Position numbers and translations under genes: made by a program. From an uncultured Thermoleophilia bacterium (GTDB lineage: Bacteria; Actinomycetota; Thermoleophilia; UBA2241): a DNA stretch of 64,000 nucleotides. A model generated the notes under the pieces. It ran no database searches and was not told where the DNA came from. It saw only the letters and a program-made list of their open reading frames with translations. Positions 21,569 to 45,108 of this stretch are shown here, piece by piece; the first letter of the stretch is position 1, and every line of letters starts with the position of its first letter. The DNA is taken from NCBI GenBank assembly GCA_963747935.1, contig CAVVGY010000005.1, forward strand, positions 197,620 to 261,619. The letters run 5' to 3'.

Positions 21569-22233
21569 TCCGATTCGTCCTCGCCACCGGTAACCGGCAC
21601 AAGGCCGTGGAGTTCGGCGCCATCCTGGCGCCGTGCCGCGTGGACGTCATGCCGGACGGCGTGGAGCTGCCGCCCGAGGGCGTCGAGTCGTTCGCCGAGA
21701 ACGCCCTCGGCAAGGCCGAGGGGCTGGCGCGGGCGGTCGAGGCCGACCCCGCGCTGCTGGAGCAGCTCGGCCTCGAGGCGGACGAGCAGGTGCTCTACCT
21801 CGCCGACGACTCCGGCCTCGAGGTCGAGGCGCTGGACTGGGCGCCGGGCGTGACCAGCGCCCGCTACGCGGGCGTGGACGGACCCGGCGCCGACAGGGCC
21901 AACTACGAGCGCCTGCTGGGCGAGCTCGGCGGCCTTGCCGGGCCGCTCGCCCGTCGCGCCCGCTTCGTCTGCTCGGTTGTCGCCGTCGGCCCCGCTATGG
22001 AACACTACGCCGCAACGGGACACTGGTGGGGCTCCATTGCGGACGCACCGCGCGGTGAAGGTGGGTTCGGCTACGACCCCGTCTTCGTCCCGCAAGGGTC
22101 AGACCTGACTGTGGCCGAGTGGCCGCAGGATGCCAAGGACCAGGCCAGCCACCGCGCGCTGGCCGGCAGGGCCCTCGTCGATGTACTGCGACGGGAGGGT
22201 CTGCTGCATGGCAACGAAGGCACACAAGGGTAG
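21565..22233 (+). CDS. rdgB: Non-canonical purine NTP pyrophosphatase (RdgB/HAM1 family)
   Basis: LATGNRHK...ADDSGLEV..L.GAPGV.SARYAG...GFGYDPVF...SHRA. Confidence 0.9.
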   Translation: MIRFVLATGNRHKAVEFGAILAPCRVDVMPDGVELPPEGVESFAENALGKAEGLARAVEADPALLEQLGLEADEQVLYLADDSGLEVEALDWAPGVTSARYAGVDGPGADRANYERLLGELGGLAGPLARRARFVCSVVAVGPAMEHYAATGHWWGSIADAPRGEGGFGYDPVFVPQGSDLTVAEWPQDAKDQASHRALAGRALVDVLRREGLLHGNEGTQG

Positions 22234-23215
22234 TCCGGCCGCTCCGGTCGACCCCCACAACGACCACCGGGCAAAGTCGCGCGCCGCCGCGACCTCGATC
22301 GCGTCCAACGCGATCCTGATCGTGTTCAAGCTCACGGTCGGCATCCTCTCCGGGTCCATCGCCATCATCTCCGAGGCGCTGCACTCCGGGTCGGACCTGG
22401 TGGCGGCGCTCATCGCGTTCTGGTCGGTGCGCCAGGCGGCGCAGCCGCCGGACGAGCGCCACCACTACGGCCACGAGAAGGTCGAGAACCTGAGCGGCGT
22501 CATCGAGGCGCTGCTCATCATCGCCGCCGCCGGCGTGATCATCTTCGAGGGCGTCACCAAGATCATCGACGGCCCCGAGCTCGACCACATCTGGCTGGGC
22601 ATCGGGGTCATGATGGTGTCGGGCGTGGCCAACCTCATCGTCTCCAAGAAGGTGCTGTACCCGGTCGCCAGGCGGACGGAGTCGGCGGCCCTGGAGGCGG
22701 ACGCCGCCCACCTGCTCACCGACGTGTACACGTCGTTCGGCGTGGCCTTCGGCCTGCTGCTGGTCAAGATCACCGGCTGGCCTTACTTGGACCCCATCGC
22801 CGCCATCGCCGTGGCCGTGCTCATCATCAAGACCGGCTACGAGCTGGTGATGCAGTCCACGCGCGTGCTGCTCGACGAGACGCTGCCCGACGACGAGCTC
22901 GAGGAGATCCGCCGCTGCGTGCGCGAGCACCGCGGCGACATCATCAGCGGCTACCACAAGTTGCGCGCGCGCCGGGCCGGCAGCCGGCGGCACGTCGACC
23001 TGCACGTGCTCGTGGACGAGAACCTGACGATCACGCAGGCGCACGACATCGCCGAGCACATCGAGGACGACATCCGCGCCTGCATCCCCAACACGGACGT
23101 GCTCGTCCACGTCGAGCCTCGCACGCACAAGGCGGAGGGCGAAGCGGGCGCCACGCCGCGCCGCGACGAGAGTGAGCCCGCCCCGCCCGGCGACGCCGGC
23201 GAGGCGGCCGGCTAG
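22208..23215 (+). CDS. Cation diffusion facilitator family transporter
   Basis: ATG 22208. SEALHSGSDL, HYGHEKVE, AAHLLTDV, C-terminal cytoplasmic domain. Stop is TAG 23213-23215. Confidence 0.85.
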   Translation: MATKAHKGSPAAPVDPHNDHRAKSRAAATSIASNAILIVFKLTVGILSGSIAIISEALHSGSDLVAALIAFWSVRQAAQPPDERHHYGHEKVENLSGVIEALLIIAAAGVIIFEGVTKIIDGPELDHIWLGIGVMMVSGVANLIVSKKVLYPVARRTESAALEADAAHLLTDVYTSFGVAFGLLLVKITGWPYLDPIAAIAVAVLIIKTGYELVMQSTRVLLDETLPDDELEEIRRCVREHRGDIISGYHKLRARRAGSRRHVDLHVLVDENLTITQAHDIAEHIEDDIRACIPNTDVLVHVEPRTHKAEGEAGATPRRDESEPAPPGDAGEAAG

Positions 23216-25787: not shown

Positions 25788-27071
25788 TCAATGGAAGATC
25801 CTCGGCAGGCGCTTCTTCCACGCGAGCGGAAGCACCAGGTCGATGGCGTCGTCGATGGTGATGATGCCGTGCAGTTCGCCGTCCGCGTCCACGACGGGGA
25901 GGGCGAGCAGGTTGTACTTGGCGATCACCTCGGTGATCTCTTCTTCGCTGGCCTCGGGGCGCACGGAGACGGGGTTCTCCGTCATGAACTCGCGCACCTT
26001 GCGGTCCGGCGCGCTCATGACCAGCTCGCGCAGAGAGAAGACGCCGCGGAGGTGCTCTGAGCGGTCCACCACGTAGATGTAGTAGACCGTCTCGGCCTCT
26101 TCTTCCTGCGTGCGCAGCCGCTCGATCGCCTTGTAGGCGGTGTCGTCGAGGCGCGCCCACGCGTAGTTCGGGGTCATGATGCCGCCGGCGGAGTGCTCCG
26201 GGTAGCTGAGCAGCTCGCGCATGTCCTCGGCGTCGTCCTTCTCCATCATCGCGATGAAGTGCTGGCGCCGGTCGTCGGGCAGGTCCGCCAGCAGGTCGGC
26301 GGCGTCGTCCGGCGACATCTCGTTGAGGATCTCGCTCGCCTTCTCGTCGGGCAGGTCGAGCAGCAGCGACGCCTGGTACGAGGGGTGCAGCTCCTCGAAC
26401 GTGTCGGCGGCCAGGTCGTCCTCGAGCGCGTCGAACACCGCGGCCCGCTCCTCCGGCGAGAGCTCGTGGACGAGCTCGGCGATGTCGGCGGGGTGGAGCA
26501 GTTCCAGCTTGGTCTGGGGGACGGCGAGGCGCACGGCCGCGTCGTCCGTCTGCTCGATGTCGACGTCCTTCCAGTCGATCAGGTGCGGCTTGGGGTGCTG
26601 GCGCGACTTCGCGAGGCGGTCGCCGACCACGGCGAGGCCCACTCGGCGGAGGATGGCGTTGCTGGAGACGTCCACTGCCGCGACGTGCACGAACGGGCCG
26701 TTGCGCAGCAACTGGATGTCGTTGACGCGGATGACCTTGCGGCCCTCGGTGTCGACGAGCTGCTTGTCCAGGAACGTGGCCGAGAGGTTGAGCTCGTCGG
26801 CCTCGAGCTCACGCTCGACGAGCTCGGAGCCGGGCACGCGCAGCATCAGGCCCGACTCCTCGAAGCTGCTGACTGCGTCCCACGGCGCGTAGAGCACCTT
26901 GCCGCGCCGCTTGACGCCCACCGCGGTCACGCGCGGGTAGGCCTGTCGCGTGCTGACCACCAGGTCGTCGAGCGTACCGGCGGATTTGTTCTCGACGTCC
27001 TTGACCGGGCTGCCCAGCAGCTTGCTCAGGTAGAACACAGGCCTCACCTCCTTCGCGTGACCAACGGTCAC
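25788..27071 (-). CDS. Soluble PRC-barrel + MgtE N-terminal domain + CBS-pair protein (no MgtE membrane domain)
   Basis: LHPADIAELVHEL..., SPDDAADLLADLPDD, then two CBS motifs (IMTPNY..; MTENPVSV..LPVVDADGELHGIITIDD). Ends 14 aa later without TM helices. Confidence 0.85.
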   Translation of the reverse strand: MTVGHAKEVRPVFYLSKLLGSPVKDVENKSAGTLDDLVVSTRQAYPRVTAVGVKRRGKVLYAPWDAVSSFEESGLMLRVPGSELVERELEADELNLSATFLDKQLVDTEGRKVIRVNDIQLLRNGPFVHVAAVDVSSNAILRRVGLAVVGDRLAKSRQHPKPHLIDWKDVDIEQTDDAAVRLAVPQTKLELLHPADIAELVHELSPEERAAVFDALEDDLAADTFEELHPSYQASLLLDLPDEKASEILNEMSPDDAADLLADLPDDRRQHFIAMMEKDDAEDMRELLSYPEHSAGGIMTPNYAWARLDDTAYKAIERLRTQEEEAETVYYIYVVDRSEHLRGVFSLRELVMSAPDRKVREFMTENPVSVRPEASEEEITEVIAKYNLLALPVVDADGELHGIITIDDAIDLVLPLAWKKRLPRIFH

Positions 27072-27080
27072 CGGACATAC

Positions 27081-27103
27081 AAAAGCCTCCCTGCAGGGAG
27101 GCT
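27081..27103 (-). terminator. Expression-platform hairpin of the M-box (terminator / RBS sequestrator)
   Basis: Minus strand reads AGCCTCCCTGCAGGGAGGCTTTTG. The 3' arm contains the GGAGG that lies 14 nt before GTG 27071. Confidence 0.7.
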
Positions 27104-27130
27104 CCGGACGCGCAGAGCGAAGGGGCGATC

Positions 27131-27290
27131 CTCTCTCGTCCCAGCTTTAGCACAACACACCGTAGAGGTCAGGGCCTCAGCCGTTTCGGGCAAAACCTTG
27201 TGCCGGTAGTGCCTGTCCTACGCGTTGGCGTCTCTGGACGTTTCCGCGCAACGGCCTCTATGTGTGCCGGAGCCTCACCTAACGAGGAAC
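27131..27290 (-). promoter_or_regulatory. M-box (ykoK leader) Mg2+ riboswitch aptamer
   Basis: Minus strand reads CGUUAGGUGAGGCUCC ... GUCCAGAGACGCCAACGCGU ... UGUGCUAAAGCUGGGACGAGAG. These match, from memory, the conserved blocks of the B. subtilis mgtE M-box (CGUUAGGUGAGGCUCC / GUCCAAAGACGCUAAUGGGU / AGUGCUAAAGCUCUACGA). Confidence 0.85.
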
Positions 27291-27430
27291 TGCGCCTGGT
27301 TGACGCTCGGTCAACGTACCCCTGCACTCCGGCAGTGTCAAGGCGGACCCCGGTGGTATACTTGGCGCCGCCGAGGGCCGGCGCCGACACGGGCGCCGGC
27401 TTCTGTGCGAAGGCCGATGGGAGGCCCCGC

Positions 27431-28384
27431 GTGATCATCACCGTCACGCCCAACGCCGCGGTCGACAAGACGCTCACCGTCCCCAACTTCCAGACCGGGT
27501 TCCGTCACCGCGCCAGCGAGAGCCTCACGCTCCCGGGCGGCAAGGGAGTCAACATCGCCCGGGCGCTCAAGGCGGTCGGCGAGCCGGTGGTCGTCACGGG
27601 TCTCGTGGGCGGCCGCGCGGGGCAGCAGATCGTCGAGGGCCTGCAGCGCGAGAACATCCTCAACGACTTCGTGCACATCGGCGGCGAGTCCCGTACCTCC
27701 ACCGCCGTCGTCGACCCCACCACCATGACGCAGACCGAGGTGGTCGAGTACGGCCCCGTGGTCAGTGAGGCCGAGACCTCCGCCCTGCTGGACAAGACAG
27801 AGTATCTCGCCAAGGGCGCCCGCTTCGTCATCCTCGCCGGCTCGCTGCCGCGCAAGATGAGCGAGGACTTCTACAGCATTCTGCTGCAGCGCTTGCGCAA
27901 GTACCGCTGCTTCGTCGTGCTCGACAGCGCCGGCGAGCCGCTGCGCCGCGGCGTACGCGGCCGGCCCAACCTCGTGGCTCCCAACCTGCGCGAGGCCGAG
28001 GACCTGGTGGGGCACGAGTTCCACGACGACCAGGACCTGGTCGACGCCACAGGGATCGTCTGCGAGATGGGCGCCCGCAACACCGTGATCAAGACGCAGC
28101 ACGGCTGCGTCGCGCGGTTCCAGGTGGGGCGCAAGCAGCGCGTGTTCCGCGCCTCCGTCGCCCCGCTCGAGACCGTCATCAGCACCGTCGGGTCCGGCGA
28201 CGCGTTCCTCGCCGGGTTCGTCAGCGCCAGGTTCCGCAGGCTCGACCTGCCCGAGTGCCTGCGCCACGGCCTGGCCGCCGGCGCCGCCAACACGCAGCTG
28301 TACGGCGCCGGTGTGCTCGACGCCGCACTCGCCGCGCGGCTCCTCGACTCCACCGAGGTGGAGGAGCTCTCCGCAAAGTCCTGA
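27431..28384 (+). CDS. PfkB-family sugar-phosphate kinase (1-phosphofructokinase/tagatose-6-P kinase type)
   Basis: GTG 27431 after GGGAGG. TVTPNAAVDKT...GGKGVNIARAL...GSGDAFLAGF. Confidence 0.85.
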   Translation: MIITVTPNAAVDKTLTVPNFQTGFRHRASESLTLPGGKGVNIARALKAVGEPVVVTGLVGGRAGQQIVEGLQRENILNDFVHIGGESRTSTAVVDPTTMTQTEVVEYGPVVSEAETSALLDKTEYLAKGARFVILAGSLPRKMSEDFYSILLQRLRKYRCFVVLDSAGEPLRRGVRGRPNLVAPNLREAEDLVGHEFHDDQDLVDATGIVCEMGARNTVIKTQHGCVARFQVGRKQRVFRASVAPLETVISTVGSGDAFLAGFVSARFRRLDLPECLRHGLAAGAANTQLYGAGVLDAALAARLLDSTEVEELSAKS

Positions 28385-39814: not shown

Positions 39815-39877
39815 TGACTCACGGTATCCGCCCTCGTGCTCGGCGTCAAGAGCTGGCCTCGTCGACGACCCATACGC

Positions 39878-39905
39878 TTGACAACCCCCCATTTGCACCT
39901 ATTCT
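39878..39905 (+). promoter_or_regulatory. Candidate promoter TTGACA-N16-TATTCT of the mtbB operon
   Basis: Hexamers at 39878-39883 and 39900-39905. Operator site 3 starts 3 nt after the -10. Confidence 0.55.
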
Positions 39906-39907
39906 TT

Positions 39908-39921
39908 TCCACCCAGGTGGG
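39908..39921. promoter_or_regulatory. Operator palindrome TCCACC-CA-GGTGGG, site 3
   Basis: Immediately downstream of the -10 element of the mtbB promoter. Confidence 0.65.
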
Positions 39922-39964
39922 TAGTTCTTCCCACACCAAGCGCTACCGTGGAGGGGGTGAGCGG

Positions 39965-41386
39965 GTGGCTTCGATCGTCACGCGCATGGGTGACGGCAGC
40001 ACCGTCCAGATGACCCGCGACGAGATCCGCAGGGAGATCGTCGAGGGGTCTGAGGCCGCGGCGGTGAAGGCCAAGGTCCCCGTACTCGAGGAGAACGAGG
40101 TCGACTACCTCGTCGACATGTTCTGTTGCCCCAGCCGCGTGTGGGGCGTGGAGCGCGGCCACGAGGCCGTCATGACCAAGGACGGCGGCACCAACACGCT
40201 CATCTCGTCGCGGCTCTCGAGCGGCATCGCCGCGCCGATCGGCCGCGAGACGGCCGTCAGGCTGTTCGAGCGGGCGTTCGCGTTCGACTCCATGGAAGTC
40301 GGCCACATCGACTACTCCGTGAAGCCGAGCAAGTTCATCGTCAGCGTGGAGCAGGAGCACATGGAACTGCTCCAGCACACCACCGTGTTTCCGCTCTTCT
40401 ACGGGTTCATGCCGAACCTGGGCCTCTACTACCGGCCCGACGGGCAGTTCGAGAACCCGTCCGACCTCTTGCCGCTGGGCAAGATCGCCGAGGCGCGGCG
40501 CACGCAGGAGGAGGCCCTGGAGGCCTGCCACGACGACGTCGTCTGGCAGAGCAAGATGTTCGCCGAGACCGGCGCCGACGGCATCAACTACGACACCGTG
40601 GCGTCCACCGGCGACGCCGAGTTCCTCGCCACTCTCCGCGCCACCGAGACCATCTCGTCCGAGACCCACATGCCGGTCGAGGTGAGCATGGCGGCCGAGA
40701 TGGTGCTGGGGTTCCACGGCGAGCTCGAGTACAAGGGCACCCGGCTCGCCGGGCTGTGGCCGCACCAGCAGATGAAGGTGGTCGAGCAGGCCGGCGCCGC
40801 GATCTTCGGCCCCGTGGTCAACAACAACAGCAAGAAGTCGTGCGCCTGGAACGTCGCCCGGGCGGTCACGTTCGTCAAGGCCTGCACCAAGGACGCGACC
40901 ATCCCCATCCACCCCAACGTGGGCAACGGTGTGGGCGGCGTGCCGATGTTCGAGGTCTCGCCGATGGACATGGTCAGCCGGGCGAGCGCCGCGATGATCG
41001 AGATCGGCAAGGCCGACGGGTTGTAGGTGGGTACCGGCGACCCGAACGGCATGGGTATGGCGCACGCGCTGGCCTCGTCGATGGGTGGCATCAAGACCGC
41101 GGGAGATCTCGTGGCCAGGATGCAGCTCAGCAGGAAGATGAGGCTTCCGGAGGCCAAGCAGTACGTGGCCGACAAGCTCGGCGTGAGCGTCTTCGACCTG
41201 TCCGACTCGACCGTGATGCGCACCGTGCGCGAGGAGTTCGACATCGGCGTCGTCACCGCCGTCCCCGGGCTCGCCAAGGGCCTCGAGGCCAAGTCGCGTA
41301 TCGCCGACCTGCTCGACATCCGCATCAACTCCGTCGAGCGCCTCAAGGCCAAGACGGGACTGGGCGCGCCGGCCGGAGCCGTCTGA
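39965..41386 (+). CDS. mtbB: Dimethylamine:corrinoid methyltransferase MtbB with in-frame UAG (putative pyrrolysine) at 41024-41026
   Basis: GTG 39965 after GGAGGGGG. VASIVTRMGDGSTVQMTRDEI...MEVGHIDYSVKP...FPLFYGFMPNLGLYYRPDGQFENP...LAGLWPHQQ...ARAVTFVK...IEIGKADGL-TAG-VGTGDPNGMGMAHALA...AGDLVARMQLSRKM. Collinear over its full length with Methanosarcina MtbB as I remember it (..VAGVDGI-Pyl-IGVGDPLGM..). The ORF track splits it into 39836-41026 and 41027-41386 in the same frame. Confidence 0.9.
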
Positions 41387-41396
41387 AGGAGAATCG

Positions 41397-43597: not shown

Positions 43598-45064
43598 ATG
43601 AAGCGGAACCACCAGGCCGGCCGCACGCGCCGGGAGGGCTGCGAGTTCCGGGTCCTGACCGACGACGACCTCGCCGACATCCACCTCGGGACCCTGGAGG
43701 TCCTGGAGCGGACGGGCGTGTACGTCGAGGACGAGGAGGCCCGCGAGGTCTTCGCCGGGGCCGGCGCCACGGTCGACGCCAAAGGCGTCGTCCGCATCCC
43801 CGGCCACGTCGTCGAGCAGGCCGTGCGCACGGCGCCCAGCAAGCTCCGGCTCGCCGGCCGCAACCCCAGGAACGACATCGTGCTCGAGGCCGGGCGCGTC
43901 GGCTTCACCAACTTCGGTGAGGGCGTCGCGATCATCGACCCGTACACCGGCGAGCTCAAGGTACCGACCAAGCAGGACGTCGCCGACACCGCCAAGGTCG
44001 TCGACGCGCTGCCCAACGTGGACGTCTACGAGCGCGCCGTGGTGGCCGAGGACGTCGACCAGCGCGTCGTCCACCTGCACCAGTACGAGGCCTGGGCGAC
44101 CAACACGTCCAAGCACGGATTCATGGGCTCCGGCAACGGCTGGCTCTCCCGCAAGCTGGTCGAGATGGCGTCCGTCATCGCCGGCGGGCGCGAGAAGCTC
44201 AAGGAGCGCCCGATCATCAGCTTCATCACCTGCCCCGTGAGCCCGCTCAAGCTGGTGCAGGACACGTGCGAGATCATCATGACCGGCGCCCGCGAGCACA
44301 TCGCCGTGAACATCCTCTCGATGGCGATGGCCGGCGGCTCGTCGCCGGTGACGCTGGCGGGCACGCTGGTCACGCACAACGCCGAGGTGCTCGCCGGCAT
44401 CACGCTGAGCCAGCTCACCCAGCCGGGCGCCAAGGTCGTGTACGGCAGCTCCACGACGGCCATGGACCTGCGGCTCGCCTCCGCGAGCGTCGGCTCGCCC
44501 GAGTGCGGCCTCATCAACGCCGCCGTCGCCCAGATCGCCCGCTTCTACCTGCTGCCCAGCTGGGTAGCGGGTGCGTAGGGCGACGCCAAGACGGTCGATG
44601 CCCAAAGCGGCCACGAGAAGACCCTGACCGGCCTGATGCCGGCGTTGGCAGGCGCCAACCTGATCTACGGTCTGGGGATGATCGAGTCGGGCATGACCTT
44701 CGACTTCGGCCAGCTCGTCATGGACGACGAGTTCGCCGGCATGATCAAGCAGTGCGTCCGCGGCATCCGCGTGGACGACGAGGCGCTCGCCATCGACGTG
44801 ATCGACGACATCGGTCCGTTCGGCGACTTCCTCAGCCACGACCACACCATGGCGCACATGCGCGAGCAGTCGCAGCCTGCGGTGATCGACCGTCGCGTCC
44901 GGGAGGACTGGACGACCAACGGCTCGCTCACCATCCAGGACCGCGCCCTCGCCAAGGCGCGCAAGATCCTCGAGACCCACCAGCCGGACCCGCTGCCGGA
45001 CGGCGTGGCCGACGAGCTCAAGGAGATCATCCGCGCGGCCGAGCGCGAGCTCGGCGTCGGGTGA
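43598..45064 (+). CDS. mttB: Trimethylamine:corrinoid methyltransferase MttB with in-frame UAG (putative pyrrolysine) at 44576-44578
   Basis: ..NILSMAMAGGSSPVTLAGTLVTHNAEVLAGITLSQLTQPGAKVVYGSSTT...[45 protein letters not shown]. Methanosarcina MttB (from memory) reads ..YVAGS-Pyl-SDAKVPDDQAGHEKT. The ORF track splits it into 43598-44578 and 44636-45064 in the same frame. Confidence 0.9.
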
Positions 45065-45108
45065 ACGCCCGCCGCCCGTAACGGCTCGAGGGCGAGCACC
45101 AGCAGCCC

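Follow-up and report, generated by a model that had tools for sequence, protein, structure and literature searches.

A pore-less MgtE-like sensor gene is linked to NRMT transporter genes behind an M-box riboswitch in an uncultured Thermoleophilia bacterium

Most genes for NrmT, the NRAMP-related Mg2+ transporters, have been reported to follow a gene for the cytoplasmic domain of MgtE (Shin, Wakeman et al. 2014, PLoS Genet, PMC4072509). The fragment and NrmT are often co-transcribed under an M-box in these 'mgtE-nramp operons', which is a feature of many, but not all, of them, and the M-box control of NrmT genes was shown by experiment in C. acetobutylicum. The same authors speculated that the fragment gives cytoplasmic feedback regulation, and offered 'metal chaperone activity' as an alternative (PMC4072509). 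In this study, a 64,000-nucleotide stretch of DNA from an uncultured Thermoleophilia bacterium (contig CAVVGY010000005.1; the window) was analysed, in which a separate gene for the MgtE cytoplasmic domain, here called the sensor gene, lies immediately upstream of an NRMT (NRAMP-related Mg2+ transporter) gene. The M-box leader, the gene for the MgtE cytosolic part and the NRAMP-related Mg2+ transporter downstream are common to the window and to the described operons, e.g., that of Ca_c0685 in C. acetobutylicum. However, the fragment of the window is one 416-aa gene, whereas that of C. acetobutylicum is split into two genes; the window sensor has a tandem PRC-barrel N-terminus, which the 2014 paper does not mention; and two tandem NRMT paralogs follow. 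The operon type is known; the locus adds a new example from Thermoleophilia in which the NRMT gene is duplicated in tandem. The original prediction for this DNA, made from the letters alone, regarded the arrangement and the idea of regulation in trans as undescribed, which was incorrect since both are in the 2014 paper. Our literature search returned no later functional study of the fragment and nothing on the combination of PRC, MgtE and CBS domains. What is added here is the linkage survey, the rarity of the M-box, the conservation of the Mg2+ ligands, the replacement of the acidic plug by a basic tail or transmembrane (TM) anchor, the tandem PRC N-terminus, and the cis fusions. With slightly more belief than doubt, we favour a two-layer Mg2+ feedback, in which an M-box OFF switch would be combined with an Mg2+-sensing protein that restrains NRMT.

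The mechanically called open reading frame (ORF) of the sensor gene, 25788-27071 on the minus strand, encodes 427 aa, which was the length first given for the protein. The start is most likely GTG 27038, giving 416 aa, since a length of 414-418 aa is shared by nearly all of the 120 closest homologues and the Shine-Dalgarno (SD) sequence GAAGGAGG stands 8 nt upstream. On the 427-aa ORF, Pfam recognized PRC at residues 12-71 (9e-9), MgtE_N (PF03448) at residues 192-292 (2e-29) and two CBS domains (PF00571, 3.6e-20), and barrel 1 scored 35.7 bits with PRC PF05239 against a threshold of 21.2. The MgtE pore domain PF01769 had no match in the sensor protein. The TIGR00400 (mgtE) match reached 197 bits, under the cut-off of 232.75, and covered profile positions 24-251 of 450 only; therefore, the pore is absent. 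Moreover, tblastn with 24 MgtE-type TM domains detected no MgtE pore in any frame of the window, and the ATG of nrmtA, the first transporter gene, lies 13 nt past the sensor stop with GGAGG in the spacer. Thus, no TM domain emerged on checking for a sequence error, the missing membrane pore of the original prediction was confirmed, and the sensor protein is not an MgtE channel.

The missing pore alone could also be accounted for if the sensor gene were a truncated pseudogene, left over from a decaying mgtE, or had been cut short by a sequencing or assembly error. When 1.84 billion cluster representatives were searched exhaustively, 13,862 homologues passed E <= 1e-3, of which 1,284 also passed E <= 1e-30. 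Ten of the 149 best were scanned with Pfam and the rest were classed by hydropathy and BLASTP; 120 of the 149 were full-length pore-less proteins of 380-480 aa. The sensor loci were then surveyed in one genome per GTDB species with a 20-sequence alignment (A2) as the query, the 149-sequence alignment (A1) having been replaced as too diverse, and the best 80 of more than 593 matches (L001-L080) were inspected. The product was pore-less in all 79 loci with a complete sensor ORF, with a length of 339-452 aa (399-452 aa in all but two). The family size, the specific conserved poly-basic tail in the place of the plug, and the pore-free window with the nearby start of nrmtA refute the reading as a pseudogene or truncation, to which we give practically no probability.

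The two genes downstream of the sensor gene matched Pfam Nramp strongly and their products are near EleNRMT (PDB 7qia), as the original prediction of two NRAMP-related genes in the operon had it. The value for nrmtA against EleNRMT was 8.4e-103. Both paralogs were far nearer to EleNRMT (8e-103) than to the classical MntH-type NRAMPs (1e-20 or weaker), and one further, unnamed divalent-cation transporter entry matched at 2e-26. NRMTs are defined by the motifs DxxG (helix 1) and TxxA/T (helix 6), and D55, T224 and Q379 are functionally important (Ramanadane et al. 2022, PMC8806188). NRMT-A has D41-A-G-G44, T210-T-L-T213, Q365 and E119, and NRMT-B has DAGG, TTIT and the equivalents of Q365 and E119, which correspond to Q379 (helix 10) and E133 (helix 3) of EleNRMT. 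The NRAMP methionine is replaced by Thr in the window transporters and by Ala in EleNRMT, both of which the signature permits. Helix 6b reads TPWGQFF in the window transporters; therefore, the first helix-6b histidine position is Trp, as in EleNRMT. Judged by these motifs, both window transporters belong to the NRMT clade of SLC11/NRAMP and, by homology to EleNRMT and CabNRMT, NRMT-A and NRMT-B would be the proteins that import Mg2+ (and Mn2+). BLASTP aligned the two paralogs with 65% identity, and the ATG of nrmtB follows a 19-nt spacer in which GGGAGG stands. The A-type and B-type NRMT of the relatives form separate orthologous groups; both are present in the window, L004 and L005, only A in L003, and only B in L001 and L002. 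Therefore, the duplication predates these species and was followed by differential loss. A cation-efflux gene of the CDF family (MntE/FieF-like, TIGR01297 238 bits; 22130-23215, plus strand) converges on the operon with a 4-nt overlap with the end of nrmtB, so that a divalent-cation exporter stands tail-to-tail with the importers.

The closest of the surveyed loci were from uncultured Thermoleophilia metagenome-assembled genomes (MAGs), with 76-89% identity. The others came from Chloroflexota, Rubrobacter, Eggerthellaceae, Nitrospirota, Desulfobacterota, Eremiobacterota, Dormibacterota, Armatimonadota, Firmicutes and Saccharimonadales, and, among the archaea, from the methanogens Methanobacteriaceae and Methanocella. 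In 70 loci the gene next downstream of the sensor gene, in the same orientation, is an NRMT gene, and in one (L046) the adjacent NRMT gene is on the opposite strand. Nine of the 80 loci had no adjacent NRMT gene. Four of these stop at a contig edge and are uninformative; therefore, the sensor-NRMT linkage is 71/76 (93%) of the informative species-level loci, spanning more than 10 phyla with archaea included. The NRMT signature was present in 73 of the 75 adjacent transporters. The linkage is thus conserved in other genomes, which the original prediction had put forward as a point to check. In an Eggerthella sp. MAG (L071), the NRMT directly behind a sensor gene, one with a C-terminal TM anchor, is a close homologue (641 bits) of EleNRMT, which was characterised alone; the neighbouring sensor gene is not mentioned in the 2022 EleNRMT paper (PMC8806188).

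Synteny could reflect co-regulation only, with the sensor signalling elsewhere, either to another transporter or to a cytosolic partner bound by the PRC barrels. Five of the 76 sensors were orphans with unrelated neighbours and no NRMT gene nearby, as this explanation would allow. When 5.8 billion proteins were searched with a sensor profile joined to an NRMT profile, no credible natural sensor-NRMT fusion came up, and we know of no role for a tandem PRC domain in MgtE gating. Nevertheless, the two genes are neighbours in 71 of 76 loci of bacteria and archaea, with the NRMT gene almost always next downstream in the same orientation and with short spacers. This is far tighter than mere co-regulation would predict, and the C-termini of the sensors appear to be directed to the membrane (see below). 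We consider co-regulation alone very unlikely. The fusion search also returned six singleton proteins (P0271-P0276) spanning two adjacent operon genes, with out-of-frame Arg/Pro/Gly-rich read-through mostly at the junction. P0271 consists of two merged NRMT genes (Nramp only) and the other five are of the sensor-NRMT type. By their sequences they were rejected as fusions and taken as frameshift or gene-calling artefacts of high-GC assemblies, P0274 being the least obvious case. Pseudo-fusions of this type in public metagenome assemblies could mislead surveys of domain architecture.

Residues 188-413 of the 427-aa ORF (177-402 in the 416-aa numbering) aligned to the cytosolic domain of T. thermophilus MgtE (2yvy) at 3e-39. 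The AlphaFold2 (AF2) model of the sensor had a pLDDT of 83.9 and, in Foldseek, matched 2yvy and 5x9g with target-normalised TM-scores of 0.82-0.83 and an rmsd of 2.2 A. Compared with T. thermophilus MgtE (2yvx/2yvy/2zy9), the sensor shares the fold of the N domain and CBS pair (0.82, 2.2 A) and the Mg4, Mg6 and Mg7 ligands; however, it lacks the 5-TM pore, has the basic tail W-K-K-R instead of the acidic plug and Asn in place of D226, and carries the tandem PRC in addition. The N-terminal 182 residues, when modelled alone, formed two beta-barrels (pTM 0.81). The best Foldseek match of this model was to the tandem-PRC archaeal proteins CdpB1/CdpB2 (PDB 8qzo; E = 2e-7, TM-score 0.57-0.70), followed by reaction-centre H subunits (RC-H) and the C-terminal domain of RimM. 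The CdpB1/CdpB2 proteins share only 10-13% sequence identity with the sensor and belong to an unrelated context, cell division, so that the likeness says just that the sensor N-terminus, as modelled, is a tandem PRC barrel. The original prediction had combined PRC, MgtE_N and CBS as the cytosolic part of MgtE. The three domains were found, but PRC is not a canonical part of MgtE; it is confined to a subfamily of long MgtE proteins.

Since the PRC barrel is a protein-interaction and oligomerisation fold, as in CdpB1/B2, RC-H and RimM, the sensor might not be a gate but might chaperone or buffer Mg2+, or help NRMT to assemble or to remain stable. 'Metal chaperone activity' was listed by Shin et al. 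(PMC4072509). EleNRMT was unstable in detergent and needed consensus mutations (PMC8806188), and a stabilising partner is therefore conceivable. However, cytosolic Mg2+ is millimolar, which makes a chaperone unnecessary, the same module in cis is the known gating domain of MgtE, and NrmT functions in heterologous hosts without the fragment (PMC4072509). Such a role appears quite unlikely to us.

To follow the Mg2+ sites into the sensor family, the site definitions of Maruyama et al. (PMC5882242) were applied, with counts over 149 family representatives and in 416-aa numbering. For Mg4, D91 and D247 of T. thermophilus MgtE (TtMgtE) correspond to D244 (Asp in 138/149) and D397 (Asp in 140/149) of the window sensor. 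For Mg6, D95 corresponds to D248 (Asp in 146/149), and for Mg7, E59 corresponds to D212 (Asp or Glu in 130/149). The acidic ligands of Mg4, Mg6 and Mg7 are, by this alignment, conserved in the sensor family. For Mg5, D250 corresponds to D400 (Asp or Glu in 125/149) and D226 to N376 (Asn in 73 and Asp in 44 of the 149). For Mg2 and Mg3, E258 and D259 correspond to K408 and K409, where the pore-less forms have Lys or Arg.

These sites bear on the possibility that the sensor mainly answers another ligand, adenine nucleotides in the CBS pair or Mn2+, which would tie NRMT to the energy status or to another metal. The ATP-bound cytosolic domain of MgtE (5x9g) was matched equally well by Foldseek, CBS pairs commonly bind adenosine ligands, as in many of the matches found, the Mg5 site is degenerate through D226 to Asn, and the M-box is absent from most of the operons. 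For A. capsulatum, a response of the fragment to Mn2+ was raised as a possibility by Shin et al. (PMC4072509). On the other hand, the acidic ligands of three Mg2+ sites are kept in 87-98% of the representatives, and the riboswitch, where present, is an M-box. We regard another main ligand as unlikely; it would be compatible with an Mg2+-sensing protein restraining NRMT, since ATP modulates the Mg2+ affinity in MgtE.

In MgtE, the plug helix with E258/D259 bridges to the pore. In the window sensor, these plug-helix ligands land on the Lys-Lys of a conserved tail, LPxAWKKRLPRIF, and a poly-basic C-terminal tail was found in nearly every pore-less sensor of the 80 loci. In the three Eggerthellaceae sensors (L068, L071 and L078), whose neighbours are EleNRMT-type transporters, an acidic stretch and one predicted TM helix stand in place of the poly-basic tail; this helix may be a retained remnant of MgtE TM1. 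The pore-bearing relatives retain the acidic plug (...EEEAEED...). The poly-basic tail and the TM anchor alike would place the C-terminus of the sensor at the membrane.

The PRC + MgtE_N + CBS module also occurs in cis with transporters. Proteins of approximately 600 aa, common in Coriobacteriia and Anaerosomatales, join it to a 5-TM MgtE-type pore. In the long (~600-625 aa) PRC-MgtE channels of these groups (e.g., P0324, the 'magnesium transporter' of Anaerosoma tenue), residues 1-402 of the window sensor align with 35-41% identity; unlike the window sensor, these channels keep the acidic plug and the 5-TM MgtE-type pore in cis. Furthermore, a 1,314-aa protein (P0243) fuses the module to a P-type cation ATPase (L081, 1940-5884; also in L082), and a 621-aa PRC + MgtE_N + CBS gene stands directly behind it (L081, 6018-7883), the pair being found in two independent assemblies. 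Because P0243 is encoded identically in both, an assembly artefact was dismissed and the protein was retained as real. The P-type ATPase is a third class of transporter bearing the module.

The features of the operon and its leader are listed in Table 1.

Table 1. Positions of the operon genes and the leader elements in the window
Feature	Position	Strand	Basis
Promoter-like boxes: TTGACA 27341-27336, spacer of 17 nt, TACGTT 27318-27313	27313..27341	-	sequence reading
M-box (ykoK-type) Mg2+ riboswitch aptamer	27293-27124	-	Rfam RF00380
Aptamer 5' strand GAGGCUCCGG, candidate antiterminator partner	27267..27276	-	complementarity and fold
Anti-SD segment CCCCUUCGC	27117..27125	-	MFE folds
Intrinsic-terminator-like hairpin GGAGCCUCCC-UGCA-GGGAGGCUUU with U-rich tail UUUUGUAUGU	27074..27107 (GC-rich stem 27105-27081)	-	folds and conservation
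SD GAAGGAGG of the sensor gene	27047..27054	-	8 nt upstream of GTG 27038
Sensor gene, 416 aa: tandem PRC barrels 1-~125, MgtE_N ~183-277, CBS pair ~284-402, poly-basic tail LPLAWKKRLPRIFH	25788..27038	-	Pfam, NCBIfam, models
nrmtA, NRMT-clade transporter, 423 aa	24503-25774	-	Pfam Nramp 1.4e-83
nrmtB, second NRMT-clade transporter, 423 aa	23212-24483	-	Pfam Nramp 2.8e-86

An M-box had been placed at 27131-27290 on the minus strand by the original prediction. The Infernal search of the whole window with Rfam bore this out, with RF00380 as the sole M-box (144.5 bits, with the gathering threshold at 44; E = 1e-32; the whole model, 1-169, was aligned). The leader of the window was aligned with those of five Thermoleophilia relatives (L001-L005), in which the aptamer is nearly invariant. 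The TTGACA box is identical, and the -10-like box almost so, in the six aligned leaders. The boxes were missed by a consensus scanner because the -10 box agrees with TATAAT at 3/6 positions only, and we only infer that they may form the sigma-70-like promoter of the operon.

The aptamer 5' strand GAGGCUCCGG is a perfect 10-bp complement of CCGGAGCCUC (27107-27098), the 5' arm of the hairpin, with a duplex energy of -22.5 kcal/mol, and, as read from the leader alignment, the pairing is kept as 8-9 bp in the relatives. For the leader up to the U-tract, the unconstrained minimum free energy (MFE) fold was the antiterminator form, which uses this pairing (-91.1 kcal/mol). The fold with aptamer P1 and the terminator had -89.4 kcal/mol, i.e., 1.7 above the antiterminator form, so that the two are nearly isoenergetic. 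Over the six leaders, 98.3% of the cells of the terminator helix were paired, with one compensatory CG<->UA pair, compared to 47-77% in slid controls. A U-rich tail followed the hairpin in five of the six leaders; a simple terminator scan missed the hairpin because the stem takes up three of the Us. The MFE folds contain a helix between the anti-SD segment CCCCUUCGC and the SD region GCGAAGGAGG, and in the relatives, whose SD is GGAGGAGG, CCUCC-type segments stand opposite to it. The MAFFT alignment loses register at the anti-SD, and these pairings hint weakly that it may sequester the SD of the sensor gene. The hairpin had been described in the original prediction as both a terminator and an RBS-sequestering element. 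The terminator-like stem was recovered, but the stem does not cover the ribosome-binding site, since the real SD is downstream and is paired with the separate anti-SD.

An ATG at 27078 on the minus strand, 7 nt past the GGGAGG of the terminator 3' arm, was considered as a start and rejected, as its frame overlaps the sensor gene out of frame and the homologues favour GTG 27038. The frame that it opens is probably not a gene. M. tuberculosis is reported to have a small upstream ORF (uORF) under M-box control (PMC12810186), and the ATG with the SD-like GGGAGG in and after the terminator recalls it.

In silico, an expression platform with terminator and antiterminator alternatives sits upstream of the Mg2+-transport genes. 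This layout is well supported, on the leader sequences, as a transcriptional OFF switch, and its Mg2+ dependence is predicted. At low Mg2+, the aptamer 5' strand GAGGCUCCGG would pair with the hairpin 5' arm to give the antiterminator, with read-through into the operon. At high Mg2+, the aptamer would compact and retain this strand, the terminator with its U-tail and the anti-SD helix would form, and the expression would be off.

Among the 80 loci, an M-box was found ahead of the operon in only 10 by iterative nhmmer, L001-L005 being among the carriers, and Infernal detected none in any of 11 sampled nhmmer-negative loci. Since most operons are without an M-box, their response to Mg2+ may depend mainly on the sensor protein. 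Among the Chloroflexota and Eremiobacterota, some loci (L034, 3864-7251; L031, L039 and L072) have their M-box at a distance of 280-2,000 nt upstream of the sensor gene, and the interval in L034 holds a second, divergent sensor-like ORF (30% identity).

For the protein layer of the proposed feedback, the sensor would sit at the membrane and bind the co-translated NRMT-A and NRMT-B, and would close on Mg2+ binding like the cytosolic domain of MgtE, which would inhibit Mg2+ influx once cytosolic Mg2+ is replete. Here we infer the physical binding, the direction of the regulation (inhibition), and Mg2+ as the signal. The synteny with short SD-bearing spacers, the Mg2+ ligands, the cis fusions, the membrane-directed C-termini and the mostly absent riboswitch make this layer plausible. 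Several observations weigh against it, in addition to the five orphan sensors and the want of a natural sensor-NRMT fusion. The Mg5 ligand D226 is Asn in the window sensor and in half of the family, which is the very substitution used experimentally to disable the Mg5 site (PMC5882242), and the Mg2 and Mg3 ligands are lost in the sensor. Ca_c0685 and Ca_c3329 did not require the fragment to transport Mg2+, and NrmT complemented Mg2+ auxotrophy alone (PMC4072509). EleNRMT is monomeric and, on its own, transports Mg2+ and Mn2+ in proteoliposomes (PMC8806188). Co-expressing the A. capsulatum fragment with its transporter gave no better rescue (PMC4072509); this is a weak negative, because an inhibitor is not expected to improve rescue. 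The A. capsulatum transporter also appears to prefer Mn2+ (PMC4072509), and therefore Mg2+ need not be the signal everywhere. Gating or regulation of NRMT in trans, as the original prediction put it, thus fits with the 93% synteny, the retained ligands, the cis fusions and the C-termini, but received no help from the A. capsulatum co-expression.

A stronger form of the proposal is that the sensor is a near-obligate, membrane-apposed, Mg2+-dependent gating subunit of the LeuT-fold NRMT, docking via the poly-basic tail or, in Eggerthellaceae, the TM anchor. We hold this tentatively, with rather more doubt than belief. If it is true, the gating domain of MgtE has been detached from its own pore and reused in trans on an unrelated transporter fold in bacteria and archaea, and the published measurements on EleNRMT and CabNRMT, from which the partner was absent, capture an unregulated half of the system. 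If the sensor gates NRMT, the cytosolic sensor of a channel is transplantable as a separate subunit onto a secondary-transporter fold. The survey sharpens the question of the partner, as the linkage is near-universal and holds also for a homologue of the structurally solved EleNRMT. Moreover, the change from the acidic plug to a basic tail or TM anchor is family-specific and points to concrete mutants.

Two other groups of genes in the window were noted. A PfkB-family sugar kinase gene (27200-28384, plus strand) is divergent from the operon. As called mechanically, the ORF overlaps the M-box, which is on the other strand; since the Pfam domain begins only at residue 102, translation probably starts further downstream. 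A sigma-70-like site, GTGTCA-16-TATACT (27335-27362, plus strand), may be the PfkB promoter, back-to-back with that of the operon. On the plus strand, an MtbB-like (39836-41395) and an MttB-like (43598-45076) methylamine methyltransferase gene were found with one in-frame TAG each. ARAGORN found no tRNA-Pyl in the window. The TAGs, at 41024-41026 (GKADGL*VGTGDPNG) and 44576-44578 (SWVAGA*GDAKTVD), stand in the canonical pyrrolysine context, and Rfam PYLIS_2 and PYLIS_3 matches begin exactly at them, which suggests the use of pyrrolysine in a Thermoleophilia (Actinomycetota) genome.

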